Below are positions 4,540 to 26,097 of a stretch of DNA of 39,152 nt, piece after piece. Below the pieces are notes generated by a model. It saw only the letters and a list, made by a program, of their open reading frames with translations, was not told the origin of the DNA and ran no database searches. Source of the DNA: a phage; sequence record PX759567.1; one strand, 5' to 3'. The translations under genes and the position numbers were made by a program. Position 1 is the first letter of the stretch. Each line of letters opens with the position of its first letter.

Positions 4540-4818
4540 ATGGGTAAGGTAGTTAAGAAAGTCAAGAAGGCAGTTAAGAAAGTTGCTAAGGAAGTGACCC
4601 GCCCGGTTAAACAGGTTGCTGGTGCGCTGGCTGGTGGTATTGGTGAAGCACAGGCAGTGGAAGCTCCACAGGCTGCTGCACCGATTGTTGACGTACCTGA
4701 GAAAGAGGTTTCCACTGAGGACGAAGCACAGACCGAAAGCGGACGCAAGAAAGCTCGTGCTGGCGGTAAGAAGTCCTTGAGTGTAGCCCGTAGCTCCGGT
4801 GGCGGCATCAACATTTGA
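4540..4818 (+). CDS. 7.3: gene 7.3 tail protein
   Basis: 92-aa Lys/Ala-rich ORF MGKVVKKVKKAVKK... Confidence 0.8.
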   Translation: MGKVVKKVKKAVKKVAKEVTRPVKQVAGALAGGIGEAQAVEAPQAAAPIVDVPEKEVSTEDEAQTESGRKKARAGGKKSLSVARSSGGGINI

Positions 4819-4832
4819 ACAGGAGGTGACAC

Positions 4833-6443
4833 ATGGCTGAGAAGCGTACAGGTCTAGCCGAGGAAGGCGCAAAGTCGGTCTATGAGAGATTAAAGAACGA
4901 CCGTGCTCCTTATGAGACTCGTGCTCAAAACTGCGCTCAGTACACCATTCCGTCCCTCTTCCCTAAGGATTCCGACAACTCATCCACAGACTACACAACT
5001 CCGTGGCAAGCTGTGGGTGCTCGCGGTCTCAATAACTTGGCCTCTAAGCTCATGCTGGCTCTCTTCCCGATGCAAACGTGGATGAAACTGACCATCTCTG
5101 AGTATGAGGCGAAACAGTTACTGAACGACCCCGATGGACTCGCTAAGGTCGATGAGGGTCTCTCGATGGTAGAGCGTATCATCATGAACTACATTGAGTC
5201 TAACAGTTACCGAGTGACTCTCTTTGAGGCTCTAAAACAGTTAGTCGTAGCTGGTAACGTCCTGCTGTACCTACCGGAACCGGAAGGGTCAAACTACAAT
5301 CCCATGAAGCTGTATCGATTGTCTTCTTATGTGGTCCAACGAGACGCATTCGGCAACGTTCTACAAATGGTGACTCGTGACCAGATAGCTTTCGGTGCTC
5401 TCCCTGAGGATATCCGTAAGGCTGTAGAAGGCAAAGGTGGAGAGAAGAAAGCCGATGAGACAATCGATGTGTACACTCACATCTATCTTGACGAAGACTC
5501 TGGTGAGTATGTCCGATACGAAGAGGTAGAGGGTATGGAAGTACAAGGCTCCGATGGGTCTTACCCTAAAGAGGCTTGCCCATACATCCCGATTCGTATG
5601 GTTCGACTGGACGGAGAATCCTACGGTCGTTCATACATTGAGGAATATTTAGGTGACTTACGGTCCCTTGAGAACCTCCAAGAGGCTATCGTTAAGATGT
5701 CCATGATTAGCTCTAAGGTTATCGGCTTAGTGAATCCTGCTGGTATCACCCAGCCACGCCGACTGACCAAAGCTCAGACCGGCGACTTCGTTACTGGTCG
5801 TCCAGAAGACATCTCGTTCCTCCAACTGGAGAAGCAAGCAGACTTCACTGTGGCTAAAGCCGTAAGTGACGCTATCGAGGCTCGCCTTTCGTTTGCCTTT
5901 ATGTTGAACTCTGCGGTTCAGCGCACAGGTGAACGTGTGACCGCCGAAGAGATTCGGTATGTAGCTTCTGAACTTGAAGATACTTTAGGCGGTGTCTACT
6001 CTATCCTTTCTCAAGAATTACAATTGCCTCTGGTACGAGTGCTCTTGAAGCAACTACAAGCCACGCAACAGATTCCTGAGTTACCTAAGGAAGCCGTAGA
6101 GCCGACCATTAGTACAGGTCTGGAAGCAATCGGTCGTGGTCAAGACCTTGATAAGCTGGAGCGGTGTGTCGCTGCGTGGGCTGCACTGGCTCCTATGCGT
6201 GATGACCCTGACATCAACCTTGCGATGATTAAGCTGCGAATTGCTAACGCTATCGGTATTGACACTTCTGGTATCCTTCTTACCGAAGAACAGAAGCAAC
6301 AGAAGATGGCTCAACAGTCTATGCAAATGGGTATGGATAATGGTGCCGCTGCGCTGGCTCAAGGTATGGCTGCACAGGCTACAGCTTCACCTGAGGCTAT
6401 GGTTGCTGCCGCTGATTCCGTAGGTCTACAGCCGGGCATTTAA
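4833..6443 (+). CDS. 8: head-tail connector (portal) gp8
   Basis: 536-aa ORF, same length as T7 gp8; RBS AGGAGG upstream. Confidence 0.95.
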   Translation: MAEKRTGLAEEGAKSVYERLKNDRAPYETRAQNCAQYTIPSLFPKDSDNSSTDYTTPWQAVGARGLNNLASKLMLALFPMQTWMKLTISEYEAKQLLNDPDGLAKVDEGLSMVERIIMNYIESNSYRVTLFEALKQLVVAGNVLLYLPEPEGSNYNPMKLYRLSSYVVQRDAFGNVLQMVTRDQIAFGALPEDIRKAVEGKGGEKKADETIDVYTHIYLDEDSGEYVRYEEVEGMEVQGSDGSYPKEACPYIPIRMVRLDGESYGRSYIEEYLGDLRSLENLQEAIVKMSMISSKVIGLVNPAGITQPRRLTKAQTGDFVTGRPEDISFLQLEKQADFTVAKAVSDAIEARLSFAFMLNSAVQRTGERVTAEEIRYVASELEDTLGGVYSILSQELQLPLVRVLLKQLQATQQIPELPKEAVEPTISTGLEAIGRGQDLDKLERCVAAWAALAPMRDDPDINLAMIKLRIANAIGIDTSGILLTEEQKQQKMAQQSMQMGMDNGAAALAQGMAAQATASPEAMVAAADSVGLQPGI

Positions 6444-18100: not shown

Positions 18101-19139
18101 GTATTCCACACAGGAACTGGCTGCTCGCTCTCCGTGGACTAAGCTGCTGAACGGAACCACTAACTACCTTCTGGATGCTGCGCGTCAAGGTATGCTTGGG
18201 GATGTTATTAGTGCCACCCTAACAGGCAAGACTACCCGCTGGGAGAAAGAAGGCTTCCTTCGTGGTGCCTCCGTAACTCCTGAGCAGATGGCTGGTATCA
18301 AGTCTCTCATCAAGGAACATATGGTACGTGGTGAGGACGGGAAGTTTACCGTTAAGGACAAGCAAGCGTTCTCTATGGACCCACGGGCTATGGACTTATG
18401 GCGACTGGCTGACAAGGTAGCTGATGAGGCAATGCTGCGTCCGCATAAGGTGTCCTTACAGGATTCCCATGCGTTCGGAGCGTTGGGTAAGATGGTAATG
18501 CAGTTTAAGTCTTTCACTATCAAATCCCTTAACTCCAAGTTCCTGCGAACCTTCTACGATGGATACAAGAACAACCGAGCGATTGACGCTGCGCTGAGTA
18601 TTATCACCTCTATGGGTCTCGCTGGTGGTTTCTACGCTATGGCTGCACACGTCAAGGCATATGCTCTGCCTAAGGAGAAACGTAAGGAGTACTTGGAGCG
18701 AGCACTGGACCCAACCATGATTGCACACGCTTCATTGTCTCGTAGTTCTCAATTGGGTGCTCCTTTGGCTATGGCTGACCTAGTTGGTGGTGTCTTAGGG
18801 TTCGAGTCCTCCAAGATGGCTCGCTCTACGATTCTACCTAAGGACACCACGAAGGAACGTGACCCAAACAAACCGTACACCTCGAGAGAGGTAATGGGTG
18901 CTATGGGTTCAAACCTTCTGGAGCAGATGCCTTCCGCTGGCTTTGTGGCTAACGTTGGGGCTACCTTAATGAATGCTGCTGGCGTGGTCAACTCACCTAA
19001 CAAAGCAACCGAGCAGGACTTCATGACTGGCTTAATGAACTCTACCAAGGAGTTAGTACCTAACGACCCTCTTACTCAACAGCTTGTGATTAAGATTTAT
19101 GAGGCCAATGGTGTTAACTTGAGGGAGCGTAGGAAATAA
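15183..19139 (+). CDS. 16: internal virion protein D gp16 with N-terminal lytic transglycosylase domain
   Basis: 1318-aa ORF; N-terminus has SLT-like motifs (TESRF..., MMQFTKETAKALGL, AYNQGEG). Confidence 0.95.
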   Translation: MDKYDKNVPSEYDGLFQKAADATGVSYDLLRKVAWTESRFVPTAKSKTGPLGMMQFTKETAKALGLRVTDGPDDDRLNPELAINAAAKHLAGLVGKFDGDELKAALAYNQGEGRLGNPQLEAYSKGDFASISEEGRNYMRSLLDVAKSPMAGQLETFGGITPKGKGIPAEVGLAGIGHKQKVTQELPESTSFDVKGIEQEAPAKPFAKDFWETHGETLDEYNSRSTFFGFKNAAEAELSNSVAGMAFRAGRLDNGFDVFKDTITPTRWNSHIWTPEELEKIRTEVKNPAYINVVTGGSPENLDDLIKLANENFENDSLAAEAGLGAKLSAGIIGAGVDPLSYVPMVGVTGKGFKLINKALVVGAESAALNVASEGLRTSVAGGDADYAGAALGGFVFGAGMSAISDAVAAGLKRSKPEAEFDNEFIGPMMRMEARETARNANSADLSRMNTENMKFEGEHNGVPYEDLPTEKGAVVLHDGSVLSASNPINPKTLKEFSEVYPEKAARGIKLAGFTEIGLKTLGSDDADIRRVAIDLVRSPTGMQSGASGKFGATASDIHERLHGTDQRTYNDLYKAMSDAMKDPEFSTGGAKMSREETRYTIYRRAALAIERPELQKALTPSERIVMDIIKRHFDTKRELMENPAIFGNTKAVSIFPESRHKGTYVPHVYDRHAKAMMIQRYGAEGLQEGIARSWMNSYVSRPEVKARVDEMLKEVHGVKEVTPEMVEKYAMDKAYGISHSDQFSNSSIIEENIEGLVGIENNSFLEARNLFDSDLSITMPDGQQFSVNDLRDFDMFRIMPAYDRRINGDIAIMGSTGKTTKELKDEILALKAKAEGDGKKTGEVHALTDTVKILTGRARRNQDTVWETSLRSINDLGFFAKNAYMGAQNITEIAGMIATGNVRALGHGIPILRDTLYKSKPVSAKELKELHASLFGKEVDQLIRPKRADIVQRLREATDTGPAVANIVGTLKYSTQELAARSPWTKLLNGTTNYLLDAARQGMLGDVISATLTGKTTRWEKEGFLRGASVTPEQMAGIKSLIKEHMVRGEDGKFTVKDKQAFSMDPRAMDLWRLADKVADEAMLRPHKVSLQDSHAFGALGKMVMQFKSFTIKSLNSKFLRTFYDGYKNNRAIDAALSIITSMGLAGGFYAMAAHVKAYALPKEKRKEYLERALDPTMIAHASLSRSSQLGAPLAMADLVGGVLGFESSKMARSTILPKDTTKERDPNKPYTSREVMGAMGSNLLEQMPSAGFVANVGATLMNAAGVVNSPNKATEQDFMTGLMNSTKELVPNDPLTQQLVIKIYEANGVNLRERRK

Positions 19140-21518: not shown

Positions 21519-21962
21519 ATGCTAGAATTTTTGCGTAAACTCGTCCCTTGGGTTCTCGCTGGGATGCTATTCGGATTGGGATGGCACCTTGGGTCAGACT
21601 CAATGGACGCTAAATGGAAACAGGAGGTACAGAATGAGTACGTTAAGAGAGTTGAGGCTACGGCGAGTACTCAAAGAGCAATCAATGAAATATCGGCTAA
21701 GTATCAAGAAGACCTTGCCGCGATGGAAGGGAGCACTGATAGGATTATTTCTGATTTGCGTAGCGACAATAAGCGGTTGCGCGTCAGAGTCAAAACTACC
21801 GGAACCTCCGATGGTCAGTGTGGATTCGAGCCTGATGGTAGAGCCGAACTTGACGACCGAGATGCTAAACGTATTCTCGCAGTGACCCAGAAGGGTGACG
21901 CATGGATTCGTGCGTTACAGGATACTATTCGTGAACTGCAACGTAAGCAGGAAATCAAGTAA
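21519..21962 (+). CDS. 18.5: gp18.5 i-spanin (Rz-like)
   Basis: 147-aa ORF with N-terminal TM segment; position as T7 gene 18.5. Confidence 0.85.
   Translation: MLEFLRKLVPWVLAGMLFGLGWHLGSDSMDAKWKQEVQNEYVKRVEATASTQRAINEISAKYQEDLAAMEGSTDRIISDLRSDNKRLRVRVKTTGTSDGQCGFEPDGRAELDDRDAKRILAVTQKGDAWIRALQDTIRELQRKQEIK
21634..21885 (+). CDS. 18.7: gp18.7 o-spanin lipoprotein (Rz1-like), embedded in 18.5 in another frame
   Basis: 83 aa from ATG 21634; signal and lipobox LICVATISGCAS; Pro-rich. Confidence 0.75.
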   Translation: MSTLRELRLRRVLKEQSMKYRLSIKKTLPRWKGALIGLFLICVATISGCASESKLPEPPMVSVDSSLMVEPNLTTEMLNVFSQ

Positions 21963-21971
21963 GGAGGCAAC

Positions 21972-22454
21972 ATGTCTACTCAAGCCAATCGTAATGCGCT
22001 CGTAGTGGCGCAACTGAAAGGAGACTTCGTGGCGTTCCTGTTCGTCTTATGGAAGGCGTTAAACCTTCCTGTTCCAACTAAGTGTCAGATTGACATGGCT
22101 AAGGTGCTGGCGAATGGAGACAACAAGAAGTTCATCTTACAGGCTTTCCGTGGTATCGGTAAGTCGTTCATCACGTGTGCGTTCGTTGTGTGGTCCTTAT
22201 GGAGAGACCCTCAGTTGAAGATACTTATCGTATCAGCCTCTAAGGAACGTGCAGACGCTAACTCCATCTTTATTAAGAACATCATTGACCTGCTGCCGTT
22301 TCTCAGCGAGTTGAAGCCAAGACCCGGACAGCGTGACTCTGTGATTAGTTTCGACGTAGGTCCAGCTAAGCCTGACCACTCTCCTAGTGTGAAATCGGTA
22401 GGTATCACCGGTCAGTTAACTGGTAGCCGTGCTGACATTATTATTGCGGACGAT
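21972..22454 (+). CDS. 19: terminase large subunit gp19, exon 1
   Basis: N-terminal 161 codons matching T7 gp19 (...[15 protein letters not shown]); frame then hits GAA TAA inside the intron. Confidence 0.9.
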
Positions 22455-23290
22455 GAATAACCATGTCGTCCTTAAACCCATCTAAACAGGGAAACCCGGA
22501 GCCTAACATGGTATACGGCAATCCTGTGCTAAATGAGACAGCCATAAAGAGCCTTATAGGCCCCCTAAGCGTCTCTAAATGCCAAACGACTAAGTAGTAG
22601 GGCCAAGTGGCTCGAAACGGTGGGAGAGCATTTACGGATGCTCTAAGATATAGTCTCGTCTATGGTGAGAAGCCATAGCACCATTTATTACGTAACACAT
22701 AAGGAGTCTAACATGACCACTATGAAGAAAACTCGATATGAAGTAGGTTCAATCCATGAGTCCCCTAAAGGTCCGCTCAAGGTCCTCGAGTACATTCCGG
22801 GATATAAGGACCGCTCAACAGGTAAAAAAGTACATCCTCGCGTAGTAATTCGTATGATGAACACAGGGACTGTGCTCAACGTTCAAACCACGAATATACC
22901 AGATGGTAAGTTTGAGGACTATCGACGTACCACAGTTTACGGCATTGGGTATATAGGGTCTTCCATTAAAATCACCGCTAGAGGGACATTCATCCGGCGT
23001 GTGTATGACCTATGGGCCAACATGCTTAAGCGCGTGGTTCATGAGTATCAGGGAGTATCCGTGGACCCAAGATGGCTCAACTTTACGAATTTCTTGGCGA
23101 CTATTCCGGATGTTAAGGGATATGCTGCGTGGGAGCGTGGTGAGGATGTTCATCTGGATAAAGACCTAGCTGGGAATAAACGATACTCATTGGAGGACTG
23201 TGCGTTCATTCCAGCTAAAGACAACATTCGAGAGTCTTCGTTACGTAGGTGGCGTAAGAAATAACGAGCTTACGTTAAGATAATTATTCG
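22455..23290 (+). mobile_element. group I self-splicing intron (probably IA-type) within gene 19
   Basis: P1: exon GGACGAU (22448-22454) pairs with IGS GUCGUCC (22465-22471), U.G at splice site; ends in G; R/S-like core CGACUA (22587-22592) and AAGAUAUAGUC (22645-22655); P8-like hairpin 22625-22644; ligated exons restore D-D-V-E. Confidence 0.85.
22713..23264 (+). CDS. intron-encoded protein, family not recognised (putative homing endonuclease)
   Basis: 183 aa from ATG 22713 with AAGGAG 6 nt upstream (ORF track starts at 22662); lies 3' of the P7 strand; no canonical HNH, GIY-YIG or LAGLIDADG motif seen. Confidence 0.7.
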   Translation: MTTMKKTRYEVGSIHESPKGPLKVLEYIPGYKDRSTGKKVHPRVVIRMMNTGTVLNVQTTNIPDGKFEDYRRTTVYGIGYIGSSIKITARGTFIRRVYDLWANMLKRVVHEYQGVSVDPRWLNFTNFLATIPDVKGYAAWERGEDVHLDKDLAGNKRYSLEDCAFIPAKDNIRESSLRRWRKK

Positions 23291-24568
23291 GTGGAAATTC
23301 CATCTAACAGTGCAACTATGGGTGCCCGTGAGAAGTTATGGACTCTTGTTCAGGAGTTCGCTGCGTTACTTAAGCCGCTGCCTTCCTCTCGTGTTATCTA
23401 CCTTGGAACACCTCAGACCGAGATGACTCTCTATAAGGAACTTGAGGATAACCGTGGGTATACCACTATTATCTGGCCTGCTCTGTACCCAAGGACACAC
23501 GAAGAGAACCTCTATTACTCACAGCGTCTTGCTCCTATGCTACGTGCTGAGTACGATGAGAACCCTGAGGCACTCGCTGGGACTCCAACAGACCCTGTGC
23601 GCTTTGACCGTGATGACCTGCGTGAGCGTGAGTTGGAATACGGTAAGGCTGGCTTCACACTACAGTTCATGCTTAACCCGAACCTGAGTGATGCTGAGAA
23701 GTACCCTCTGAGGCTCCGTGACGCTATCGTAGCGGCCTTAGACTTAGAGAAGGCCCCAATGCATTACCAGTGGCTTCCGAACCGTCAGAACATCATTGAG
23801 GACCTTCCTAACGTTGGCCTTAAGGGTGATGACCTTCATACTTATCATGATTGCTCCAACAACTCAGGTCAGTACCAACAGAAGATTCTGGTCATTGACC
23901 CTAGTGGTCGCGGTAAGGACGAAACAGGTTACGCTGTGCTGTACACTCTGAACGGCTACATCTACCTAATGGAAGCTGGAGGTTTCCGTGATGGTTACTC
24001 CGATAAGACCCTTGAGTTGCTCGCTAAGAAAGCGAAGCAATGGGGAGTCCAGACGGTTGTCTACGAGAGTAACTTCGGTGACGGTATGTTTGGTAAGGTG
24101 TTCAGTCCTATCCTTCTTAAACACCACAACTGTGCAATGGAAGAGATTCGTGCTCGTGGTATGAAGGAGATGCGTATTTGTGATACCCTTGAGCCAGTCA
24201 TGCAGACTCACCGCCTTGTCATTCGTGATGAGGTCATTAGGGCCGACTACCAGTCCGCTCGTGACGTAGACGGTAAGCATGACGTTAAGTACTCACTGTT
24301 CTACCAGATGACCCGTATCACTCGCGAGAAAGGTGCTCTGGCTCATGATGACCGATTGGATGCCCTTGCGTTAGGCATTGAGTATCTCCGTGAGTCCATG
24401 CAGTTGGATTCCGTTAAGGTCGAAGGTGAAGTAATTGCTGACTTCCTTGAGGAACACATGATGCGCCCTACAGTGTCTGCTACCCACATCATTGAGATGT
24501 CTGTAGGAGGAGTTGATGTGTACTCTGAGGACGATGAGGGTTACGGTACGTCTTTCATTGAGTGGTAA
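23291..24568 (+). CDS. 19: terminase large subunit gp19, exon 2
   Basis: translation (V)[22 protein letters not shown]...SFIEW continues the T7 gp19 sequence; the GTG at 23291 is codon V, not a start. Confidence 0.9.
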
Positions 24569-24605
24569 TTTATGAGGCCAAGGAAGGCCACTTTAAGGAG
24601 GTAAT

Positions 24606-25067
24606 ATGATAAACAAGAAGAAGTATGTTGTCGATAAGGAGACTGGTTGCTGGAACTTTAAGGGATGCAAGACTAAGACAGGCTATGGTCGTCTCCGTGT
24701 AAATGGAGTCCATTGGATGGCTCACAGGTATTCCCTGAGTTGTCATCTAGGTAGACCGATAGCTGATGGAATGGTTGTGATGCACCTTTGTGATAACCCG
24801 TCATGTGTTAACCCTGAGCACCTTAAGGAAGGGACTCAGAAGGAGAATATGGATGACTGTAAGGCCAAAGGTAGGATGTACAGACCGGGGGCCACAGGCA
24901 AACCAAAGACCAGTACGGCGAAGGTTATCTATCACGATGACTGGCGTAAAGACCAAGTTATCCGCTACCATGTACGCTGGAAATGGAAGCCGTCTCGTAT
25001 TGCTGAGAAGATGAGACTATCTATAACGTGGGTTAAGAGGGTCTTAGAGGAGTACGTAAGTCATTGA
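24606..25067 (+). CDS. free-standing HNH homing endonuclease (HNH_3-like)
   Basis: 153-aa ORF, strong RBS TAAGGAGG; motifs GCWNF..TGYGRL..AHRYS..HLCDNPSCVNPEHL..EN; no counterpart at this locus in T7. Confidence 0.85.
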   Translation: MINKKKYVVDKETGCWNFKGCKTKTGYGRLRVNGVHWMAHRYSLSCHLGRPIADGMVVMHLCDNPSCVNPEHLKEGTQKENMDDCKAKGRMYRPGATGKPKTSTAKVIYHDDWRKDQVIRYHVRWKWKPSRIAEKMRLSITWVKRVLEEYVSH

Positions 25068-25119
25068 TATTTGAAAATAGTGAAACAGGTCTAAATGTAT
25101 GTTTTTAAAGGCTGGAATC

Positions 25120-25142
25120 TAATTCGACTCACTATAGGGGAG
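25120..25142 (+). promoter_or_regulatory. T7 RNAP promoter phiOR
   Basis: TAATTCGACTCACTATAGGGGAG, two mismatches to consensus. Confidence 0.75.
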
Positions 25143-25245
25143 AGCCTACCTAAAGATAACTATAAGACTTACTATCAGACTTAAAGTGTCCTATAAGGTA
25201 GGTTGTTATTATTGTTAATACAACCAACATAAAGGGAGGAGACTC

Positions 25246-25395
25246 ATGTTCCGCTTATTGTTGACCTTGTTGCGGCATAGAGTCACCTACCGATTTCTTG
25301 TGGTACTTTGTGCTGCCCTTGGGTACGCATCTCTTACTGGAGACCTCAGTTCACTGGAGTCTACCGTTTGCTCTATACTCACTTGTAGCGATTAA
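25246..25395 (+). CDS. 19.5: gene 19.5 protein
   Basis: 49-aa ORF MFRLLLTLLRHRVTYRFLVVLCAALGYASLTGDLSSLESTVCSILTCSD. Confidence 0.8.
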   Translation: MFRLLLTLLRHRVTYRFLVVLCAALGYASLTGDLSSLESTVCSILTCSD

Positions 25396-25635
25396 GGTCT
25401 TCCTGACCGACTGATGGCTCACCGAGGGATTCAGCGGTATGATTGCATCACACCACTTCATCCCTATAGAGTCAAGTCCTAAGGTATACCCTATAAAGAG
25501 CCTCTAATGGTCTATCCTAAGGTCTATACCTAAAGATAGGCCATCCTATCAGTGTCACCTAAAGAGGGTCTAAGAGAGGGCCTAAGGAGTTCCTAGAGGG
25601 TCCTTTAAAATATACCATAAAAATCTGAGTGACTA

Positions 25636-25800
25636 TCTCACAGTGTACGGACCCAAAGTTCCCCCATAGGGGGTACCTAAAGCCCAGCCAATCACCTAAA
25701 GTCAACCTTCGGTTGACCTTGAGGGTTCCCTAGGGGTTGGGATGACCCTTGGGTTTACCTTTGAGTGTTGCCTTGGGTGTAACCTTGAGTGTCTCTCTGT
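25636..25800. repeat. terminal repeat region / concatemer junction (single copy in this permuted representation)
   Basis: TCTCACAGTGTACGGACC... matches the T7 left-end sequence as recalled; TR extent (about 160 bp) inferred from T7. Confidence 0.5.
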
Positions 25801-25819
25801 GTCCCTATCTGTTACAGTC

Positions 25820-25975
25820 TCCTAAAGTATCCTCCTAAAGTCACCTCCTAAAGTCATTCCTACCGTCTACAACCTAAAGCCTACACCTAAAGACGCCATC
25901 AAGTCAATGCCTATCTTAAAGTTAAAACATAAAGACCATACCTAAAGACACTACATAAAGACCATACCTAAAGAT
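25820..25975. repeat. array of short CCTAAAG-type repeats flanking the terminal repeat
   Basis: repeated CCTAAAG / ACCTAAAGAC units at irregular spacing, as at T7 genome ends. Confidence 0.6.
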
Positions 25976-26022
25976 GCCTTGTTGTTAGCCATAAAGAGAT
26001 AACCTTTAATCATTGTCTTTAT

Positions 26023-26045
26023 TAATACGACTCACTATAAGGAGA
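26023..26045 (+). promoter_or_regulatory. T7 RNAP promoter phiOL
   Basis: TAATACGACTCACTATAAGGAGA. Confidence 0.8.
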
Positions 26046-26097
26046 GACTACTTAAAGAGGCCTTAAAGATGGATTAATTTAAAGATTTATTAAAAAA

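Follow-up and report, generated by a model that had tools for sequence, protein, structure and literature searches.

A probable mobile group I intron with an endonuclease-like open reading frame in the large-terminase gene of a T7-like phage

Introduction

Group I introns are established in phage terminase genes (review PMC3984707; Bastillevirinae, PMC11878797). According to the citation in PMC11878797 of Bonocora & Shub (2004, J Bacteriol 186:8153), the T7-like phages PhiI and W31 carry a group I intron in gene 5, the DNA polymerase gene. Escherichia phage K1E (genes 40A/40.5/40B) and Lelliottia phage phD2B have a split large-terminase gene (terL) with a putative intron that bears a homing endonuclease gene (PMC4246154). 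In this report we consider sequence record PX759567.1, a stretch of 39,152 nucleotides (nt) termed the window, in which the genome of a T7-like phage (Teseptimavirus) is present in full and circularly permuted. Its gene 19, which encodes the large terminase subunit, is interrupted by an 836 nt insert at positions 22455-23290. We conclude that this insert is very probably a mobile group I intron, of subgroup IA and IA2-like, that carries an endonuclease open reading frame (ORF). All features described below lie on the plus strand.

The locus resembles the PhiI and W31 introns in that a group I element with an associated HNH-type endonuclease lies in a gene that is both conserved and essential, in a phage of the T7 group, the host gene being that for DNA polymerase in those phages and that for terminase here. 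The original prediction for this DNA had named the DNA polymerase gene as a site of group I introns in T7-like phages and could not confirm one in gene 19. The polymerase case is indeed cited in the literature, and terminase cases are known as well, in K1E and phD2B, at another site (PMC4246154).

Results

Removal of the insert restores an intact gene 19

Gene 19 starts at 21972, and its frame reaches ...ADIIIADD before it encounters a glutamate codon and a stop codon (GAA TAA, 22455-22460). Translation of the unspliced gene adds this one glutamate to the exon 1 product, stops at 22458-22460 and gives a fragment of 162 amino acids (aa). The frame is taken up again at 23291 (GTG GAA ATT CCA...) and reads through to 24568. 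In-silico excision of 22455-23290 joins 21972-22454 to 23291-24568 and yields a protein of 586 aa plus stop, which equals T7 gp19 in length and aligns with it colinearly and without gaps, with 581/587 positions identical. The original prediction had the frame stop two codons into the insert and resume at 23291, and it had put the insert at 836 nt; these values proved exact. Its statement that T7 gp19 is contiguous across the interruption agrees with the ungapped 586-aa product, and its proposed ligation, GAC GAU|GUG GAA (D-D-V-E), agrees with the joined reading frame. An intein was considered as another candidate and is ruled out by the TAA in the gene 19 frame two codons into the insert.

Exon 1 (21972-22454) comprises 161 codons ending in ...ADIIIADD (GAC GAU) and contains the Pfam domain Terminase_6N at residues 60-161. 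Exon 2 (23291-24568) comprises 425 codons, from VEIPSNS... to the stop, and contains Terminase-T7_RNaseH-like (Pfam, E 3e-40). The intron boundaries were set by comparison with the intron-less phages T7 and JacobBurckhardt. This comparison leaves an ambiguity of 1 nt, in that G22455 equals G23291, which is resolved because the 5′ exon must end in a U paired to G. The subgroup IA-like intron thus follows U22454, and its last base is G23290 (omega G).

The predicted ligated-exon junction reads ...GCGGACGAU|GUGGAAAUU. At the insertion site the intron-less T7 gene 19 reads GCGGATGAC|GTTGAGATTCC, and the intron-bearing or spliced-type sequence reads GCGGACGAT|GTGGAA. In codons, intron-bearing alleles have GCG GAC GAU|GUG GAA where T7 and JacobBurckhardt have GCG GAU GAC|GUU GAG. 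These synonymous exon differences provide intron-bearing alleles with the U at position -1 and with the P10 pairing described below. From the sequence pattern, the insertion site is presumably the Walker B motif of the packaging ATPase, as it lies after an hhhhDD stretch that follows the GIGKS P-loop. The assignment of IIIADD to Walker B comes from the general ATPase motif pattern, and we found no confirmation of it in the literature. Over residues 3-327, which form its N-terminal ATPase half, window gp19 is ~90% identical to the chain named 'Terminase, large subunit' in PDB entries 8dgc_E / 9o4e.

The insert matches the group I intron family

The Rfam model RF00028 matches positions 22415-22678 with 49.0 bits (E 3.7e-11 locally, 1.3e-9 over the window). 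This is the sole RNA-family match in the 39-kb window, and no other intron was detected with RF00028 in the window, gene 5 included. The Infernal search suggested with the original prediction therefore gives a match of low E-value whose bit score falls under the gathering cut-off of 50. Homologues inserted at the same codon score above the cut-off in two cases (74.3 bits for locus L027 and 65.2 bits for locus L017) and 47-49 bits in the others, so that the family straddles the curated threshold. The window copy is a reduced variant from which one peripheral hairpin has been lost.

A P1-P10 structure is conserved among relatives of the intron

To examine the RNA structure we used a covariation set of 22 copies with <93% pairwise identity, to which the pairing values given below refer. 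The sequences were aligned on invariant anchors and padded with N so that columns remained fixed, because a plain MAFFT alignment of 23 cores misaligned P6-P7 between the window clade and the remaining sequences. Standard pairs occupy 97.7% of 1449 cells, as compared with 73.9% when the 3′ partners are shuffled and 37-44% when the partners are slid by 1-3 columns. Helices P1, P3-P9 and P10 and an additional 3′ hairpin are maintained, and in 52/74 pairs both bases vary. The covariation score reaches 0.566, as against 0.156 for shuffled data, and 0/500 shuffles reach any of the observed measures. A conserved P1-P10 RNA structure therefore exists, and the strongest covariation evidence for it comes from the anchor-aligned P3, P4, the outermost pair of P1, and P10. 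When RNAalifold was applied unguided to the plain MAFFT alignment, it recovered P1, P3, P4, P5, P7.2, P8 and P9, with 25/39 pairs compensatory. Folded by itself, the window RNA gives a centroid structure with P1, P3-P6a, P7.2, P8 and P9 (z = -2.8).

P1 (22448-22471) is formed by exon nucleotides GGACGAU (22448-22454) and the guide GUCGUCC (22465-22471), separated by L1 (22455-22464), with U22454.G22465 at the splice site. The two strands, whose pairing had been proposed, are perfectly complementary, with 99.4% of cells paired and the U.G present in 22/22 sequences. The outermost pair occurs as A-U, G-C or U-A, its exon side changing through a synonymous alanine codon. P10 joins CCAU (22461-22464) to GUGG of exon 2 (23291-23294), with 86.4% of cells paired and both-side changes in 2/4 pairs (A-U, C-G, U-A). 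It is found in the versions GUGG/CCAU, GUUG/UAAC, GUAG/CUAU and AUAG/CUAU.

P3 is a long-range helix (CCCAUC 22477-22482 with GGUGGG 22619-22624) that is pseudoknotted with P7 and paired in 90.9% of cells. All 6/6 of its pairs are compensatory in an alignment fixed by anchors without tuning of individual sequences. Variants include CCCAUC/GGUGGG, CCUAUC/GGUAGG, GUCAUC/GGUGAC, CCCUCU/AGAGGG, CCAUGU/GCAUGG and CUUUGU/GCAAAG, among others, and four of the pairs were also recovered by RNAalifold. In fPS-9, C22479U goes together with G22622A. P4 (ACAGGG 22486-22491 with UCCUGU 22522-22527; 99.2% paired, 3/6 pairs compensatory) encloses J4/5 (AAAC) and P5 with its extension. P5 itself pairs CCG (22496-22498) with CGG (22516-22518) in 89% of cells. 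P6 (GC 22528-22529 with GC 22581-22582) is 100% paired. The P6a hairpin (GAGAC 22535-22539 with GUCUC 22571-22575) is present in 22/22 sequences with differing stem sequences, and its distal extension (22540-22570) is clade-specific, being absent from the Yersinia phage fPS-9 and most relatives.

P7 pairs GACUA (22588-22592, within the conserved AACGACUA and at conserved core positions of RF00028) with UAGUC (22651-22655). The 3′ strand is directly preceded by J8/7 (AAGAUA, 22645-22650), and together they constitute AAGAUAUAGUC (22645-22655), which is invariant across homologues. Between P7 and the 3′ strand of P3 lies P7.2 (22600-22613, GGGCC-AAGU-GGCUC), in which 6/6 pairs are compensatory. 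In 12/22 relatives it is accompanied by a second hairpin, P7.1 (for example UUCC-GAAA-GGAA; GAAA or GUAA loops are common), which the window clade does not have. The P8 hairpin (AGAGCAU...AUGCUCU, 22625-22644) differs in its stem in nearly every lineage and always pairs. P9 (22660-22678, CUAUGG(U)-GAGAA-(G)CCAUAG) shows compensatory changes in 6/7 pairs, and its loop, L9, is a GNRA tetraloop in most relatives.

Beyond the intron ORF the RNA ends in a 3′ hairpin ('P9.2', 23250-23277; UGGCGUAAG - AAAUAACGAG - CUUACGUUA) and a 3′ tail (23278-23290, AGAUAAUUAUUCG) that terminates in G23290. A G stands directly before exon 2 in all homologues. The hairpin is present in 22/22 sequences, and 10/11 pairs are compensatory in stems that were picked for each sequence around the loop motif. 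Its 5′ arm consists of the last ORF codons (W R K) and its loop of the ORF stop codon and a conserved UAACGA. We rejected a long-range pairing of ACGUAA (~22693) with UUACGU (23271), by which the ORF would have been looped out, because it is missing from fPS-9 and the conserved alternative is the hairpin formed locally at the 3′ end. P1, P10, the P7 strands as R/S-core elements, the P8 hairpin and the final G had all been located in the original prediction, and all stand at the positions given there as parts of the complete P1-P10 model. The 183-aa intron ORF, the P7.2 hairpin and the conserved 3′ hairpin that holds the ORF stop codon are three features in addition to those foreseen.

Two hairpins, P7.1 and P7.2, between P7 and P3′ are a hallmark of phage-type subgroup IA introns (PMC3984707). 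Judged by sequence and predicted fold, P7.2 places the intron in subgroup IA, where it may be regarded as IA2-like. By the IA2 definition, which calls for both hairpins, the window has one (22600-22613), and 12/22 relatives have both. The introns compared were those of T4 td, nrdB and sunY, Twort orf142, and the DNA polymerase and TerL genes of Bacillus phage SPO1 and the Bastillevirinae (PMC11878797). The intron family shares with these the P3-P9 core, the P7.1/P7.2 hairpins, GNRA loops on peripheral helices, an ORF outside the core, and a site of insertion at a conserved, here presumed, catalytic motif in a gene for DNA metabolism. The window copy differs in having only one of the two P7.x hairpins and no P2. 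Splicing has been demonstrated for the compared introns, and for the window intron catalysis and self-splicing are inferred.

A 44-aa ORF at 22463-22597 lies within the ribozyme core (P1-P7). Its equivalent in Salmonella phage CHRF_10027 (L002, 1991-2098) is annotated as 'hypothetical protein'; such a gene call is almost certainly an artefact of the structured RNA.

The intron belongs to a family at one terminase site

About 700 related phage records align to gene 19 in two pieces, without the 836 nt. A nucleotide comparison of the intron with phage records, as had been recommended, found the insert in six records at 88-99% identity, namely PDP351P2 (99.4%) and Vi06 (two records), CHRF_10025, CHRF_10027 and Sal_R1S (88-89%). 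Copies ~69% identical are present in 18 Yersinia fPS (Helsettvirus) records. The family as a whole was found at 65 loci in Vi06-clade Salmonella phages, Yersinia fPS phages and many metagenomic podophage contigs (36-46 kb), the latter from varied samples, one of them labelled human oral metagenome. Among the carriers, Vi06 and the fPS phages have been propagated as isolates with this essential gene interrupted.

The 65 loci have the layout ...GAC GAU | 9-13 nt | GUCGUC ... AAGAUAUAGUC ... ORF ... G | (G/A)UN GA(A/G), and the host protein at the insertion reads ...(A/S/P)DD | (V/I)E.... GACGAU is invariant in 65/65 loci and matches the invariant guide GUCGUC. Homologous introns are 776-837 nt long. 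In every context fetched, the intron ORF lies between an ORF of 160-213 aa (187 aa in the divergent L019) and an ORF of 398-426 aa, the latter containing the T7 terminase RNaseH-like domain.

K1E and phD2B, which like the window phage belong to the Autographiviridae, have a similar arrangement in which an endonuclease ORF lies between the two pieces of terL. The 5′ cores of their ribozymes match RF00028 (63.6 and 58.1 bits), and the K1E core is ~80% identical over 74 nt to a member of the window intron family. They differ in that their exon 1 encodes ~400 aa, as compared with 161 aa here, which puts their site ~240 codons further downstream. Moreover, they are Molineuxvirinae rather than Studiervirinae, and their endonucleases are not among the matches to the window intron ORF.

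A second group I intron was observed with RF00028 further down terL exon 2 in L027 (2610-2873, 80.1 bits), L037 (2855-3306, 64.1 bits) and L034 (2836-3534, 32.4 bits). These second introns probably occupy the K1E/phD2B-type site, and some podophage terminase genes would then hold two introns. A second AAGATATAGTC motif occurs in 23/66 scanned loci besides the window. A separate scan of IMG/VR with the core motif CGACTAAGTAG...AAGATATAGTC returned Vi06 together with unrelated IA introns of large phages (L008-L016). Since the motif is shared throughout the subgroup, these hits did not help with covariation. One of the unrelated hits, a 15.7-kb viral contig (L016), has group I introns at 1660-1890 and 4950-5250 (105.7 and 89.9 bits). 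One of these holds a 349-aa ORF; the host genes look like those of a terminase/portal region, and the contig also has a tRNA gene.

The intron ORF encodes a probable divergent HNH-type endonuclease

The intron ORF (22713-23264, from ATG to TAA) encodes 183 aa and lies downstream of P9. A Shine-Dalgarno sequence, AAGGAG (22701-22706), is located 6 nt upstream of its ATG, and AGGAG is kept at this place in Vi06, fPS-9 and metagenomic copies. The ORF is uninterrupted in the window and conserved at full length in at least 59 homologues. Homologues number 59 in a large protein collection, and there are 58 loci in IMG/VR.

The best match of the putative homing endonuclease is PHROG 2081 ('HNH endonuclease'; E 3e-43, profile positions 21-201 of 433), of which it covers only the first half. 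This family also holds endonucleases of Bastillevirinae polymerase introns (PMC11878797). An AlphaFold model of the protein (pLDDT 89.9) has an N-terminal small beta-barrel, SH3/Tudor-like, and a C-terminal β-β-α unit (VHLDKD...N171). Residues L148, K150, D151, Y158, F165 and N171 are invariant in 33 homologues. Because of the PHROG 2081 match, the confident β-β-α model and the invariant asparagine, we regard the product as probably a divergent ββα-Me (HNH-type) homing endonuclease, without assigning it to a curated HNH family. A Foldseek comparison of the model with PDB gave nothing significant. Hpy99I and PacI, restriction endonucleases of the ββα-Me (HNH-type) class, gave low scores and have no detectable sequence similarity to the ORF product. 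They differ from it further in that the ORF product lacks evident Cys4 zinc sites and the catalytic histidine is not conserved across its family.

Exon sequences diverge around the insertion site

Mismatches between the window exons and the closest intron-less relative cluster at the junction, with 22/240 nt there and 48/1521 in the remainder (Fisher p = 1e-4). Vi06 has several of the junction-proximal differences in common with the window. This is the pattern that would be expected from co-conversion during homing.

Genome context and transcription

The window phage shows 94-95% identity to T7 and 13a, the first 25 kb being 94% identical to phage 13a. Over gene 19 the nearest public record is Teseptimavirus PDP351P2, which is unannotated and 97% identical. 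The window contains nine T7-type promoters, six of which equal the queried 23-nt T7 consensus. The closest one upstream of gene 19 is at 19137. The T7-type promoter scan of the window found no phage promoter within the intron, and no terminator-like site was found in 21800-25300. The intron should therefore be transcribed within the late gene 17-19 message.

Directly downstream of gene 19, an ORF of 153 aa at 24606-25067 encodes a free-standing endonuclease of the HNH_3 type (Pfam HNH_3, E 2.7e-9); it is a homologue of phage 13a gene 19.4 that T7 itself does not have. With this and the intron ORF the terminase region is dense in endonuclease genes. Similarly, the split terminase gene of fPS-9 (L003) is directly preceded by g045, 'phage-associated homing endonuclease' (1640-2035), which overlaps the start of exon 1, and directly followed by g049, an HNH gene (4557-4772). 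Past the 19.4-like ORF, the sequence at ~25100-26050 corresponds to gene 19.5, the terminal repeat and a promoter in phage 13a, and at 26023 there is a T7-type promoter carrying a single mismatch. Because this region runs across the genome end, the window is a permuted whole genome.

Discussion

The restoration of gp19 on excision, the RF00028 match, a P1-P10 model backed by covariation, and carriage of the interrupted essential gene by viable isolates all support the group I interpretation made in the original prediction. Several observations weigh against it, or against the mobile, endonuclease-bearing form in which we favour it. At the gathering threshold Rfam finds nothing in the window, Vi06 or fPS-9 copies, the window copy falling 1 bit short. 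Phage IA2 introns usually possess a P2, and its absence from the window intron is unusual. P7 is invariant in 22/22 sequences and so gives no covariation signal in either direction, and a few members (L024, L077) have a weak P10 or none. The 100% pairing of P6a, P7.1, P8, P9 and P9.2 is partly a product of construction, as these were located in each sequence individually; the stems nonetheless differ in almost every lineage. On the protein side, there were no Pfam or NCBIfam matches for the intron ORF or 33 homologues, and none with a PDB sequence profile. Comparison by hhalign with the HNH_3 protein of the window gave a probability of 0.1%. The putative catalytic residue, His147, expected on β1, is present in 22/33 homologues. 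Divergence of the intron runs parallel to that of the exons, with identities of 88% versus 90.6% for Vi06 and 73% versus 74% for fPS-9, so that recent horizontal movement between genera is not supported. Finally, we found no published description of an intron at this terL site or of its family, and the paper on the fPS phages is silent on it.

It is conceivable that gene 19 has been broken up by a free-standing endonuclease gene and is now read as two separately translated ORFs, of 162 and ~425 aa, whose products assemble without splicing. Phage Aeh1 nrdA is reportedly such a split gene, the two products of which assemble into a working enzyme with no RNA splicing. Exon 2 opens with GTG, a possible start codon; an ORF finder lists 23291-24568, and in GenBank records two 'terminase large subunit' CDSs are entered, along with an HNH endonuclease. 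No Shine-Dalgarno sequence precedes 23291, however, and the first codon of exon 2 in relatives is GUU, GUA, GUC, AUC, AUU, AUA or CUA, mostly non-start codons. The break would also fall inside the ATPase fold (hhhhDD|VE). Around the ORF, ~250 nt of non-coding RNA are kept as a group I structure through compensatory changes, and both exon ends pair with the same guide loop, which a simple gene insertion does not need. The lack of a ribosome-binding site, the non-start codons and the pairing of the ribozyme with both exon ends make such a split gene highly improbable. Equally little credence can be given to a decayed element, either a dead intron or an insertion, that leaves gene 19 non-functional in this phage. 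In its favour are the annotation of Vi06 gene 19 as a pseudogene-type misc_feature, the Rfam score under threshold, and the loss of P7.1 relative to other family members. But the terminase gene is an essential one, and isolates that carry the insert (Vi06, the fPS phages and related ones) have been propagated. Both exons are intact, with 99% protein identity to T7 gp19, and the core helices, the U.G pair, the terminal G and the intron ORF all remain whole in the window copy.

An alternative that accepts the intron as competent for splicing holds that its ORF is not, or is no longer, a homing endonuclease, and is instead maturase-like, DNA-binding or decaying, with the intron passed on by vertical inheritance only. 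We consider this improbable. It would account for the absence of a recognised nuclease family, for the replacement of His147 in 11/33 homologues and for the parallel divergence of intron and exons. It sits poorly with the full-length conservation of the ORF in at least 59 homologues and the invariant residues of its β-β-α unit, with strong matches to PHROG families labelled HNH, with a patchy distribution in which the intron is missing from ~700 close relatives, and with the raised exon divergence around the junction.

If the insert is a mobile group I intron, its life cycle may be outlined as follows. The phage RNA polymerase would transcribe gene 19 as part of the late transcript, and the RNA would fold into the P1-P10 structure. 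Free guanosine would attack after U22454, at the U.G pair of P1, and the freed end of exon 1 would in turn attack on the 3′ side of G23290 while P10 holds exon 2 in place. These steps would join GAU|GUG and give normal 586-aa gp19. The 183-aa protein would be translated from its own AAGGAG ribosome-binding site and, in a mixed infection, may cleave gene 19 of related phages without the intron close to the point of insertion. The break would be repaired with the intron-bearing copy as template, and the intron would spread together with flanking exon sequence.

The 3′ hairpin, built as it is from the end of the ORF, suggests that translation of the ORF may be coupled with folding of the 3′ splice site. 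We put forward, as a speculation that is on balance unlikely to hold in full, that endonuclease cutting of rival terL genes may both spread the intron and block packaging, and that the 3′ hairpin may couple translation to use of the 3′ splice site. If this were true, cutting of the Walker-B-coding site of intron-less T7-like phages would amount to interference competition between phages, and terminase production would be timed by ribosome traffic on the intron through the 3′ hairpin.

The intron is so far undescribed but is of a well-known type of element, is conceptually unsurprising and leaves current concepts unchanged. Its recognition bears on the records of at least 24 isolates (Vi06, CHRF_10025, CHRF_10027, Sal_R1S, PDP351P2 and 18 fPS phages), in which the locus appears as a pseudogene or as two terminase genes plus a hypothetical protein. 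In the Vi06 record gene 19 carries the misc_feature already mentioned, and in later records there are the two 'terminase large subunit' CDSs with the HNH endonuclease. Recognition of the family thus corrects terL annotation across podophages that are widespread in gut, oral and environmental metagenomes. The terminases of the T7 supergroup gain a second intron site, at the Walker-B-like motif of the ATPase, and the intron ORF probably adds an endonuclease family for which Pfam has no model. Because the phage is so close to T7 and 13a and uses T7 promoters, it brings a natural group I intron and its endonuclease into the best-understood phage system, where it may be of use for studying splicing on T7 RNA polymerase transcripts, homing, co-conversion and competition between phages.

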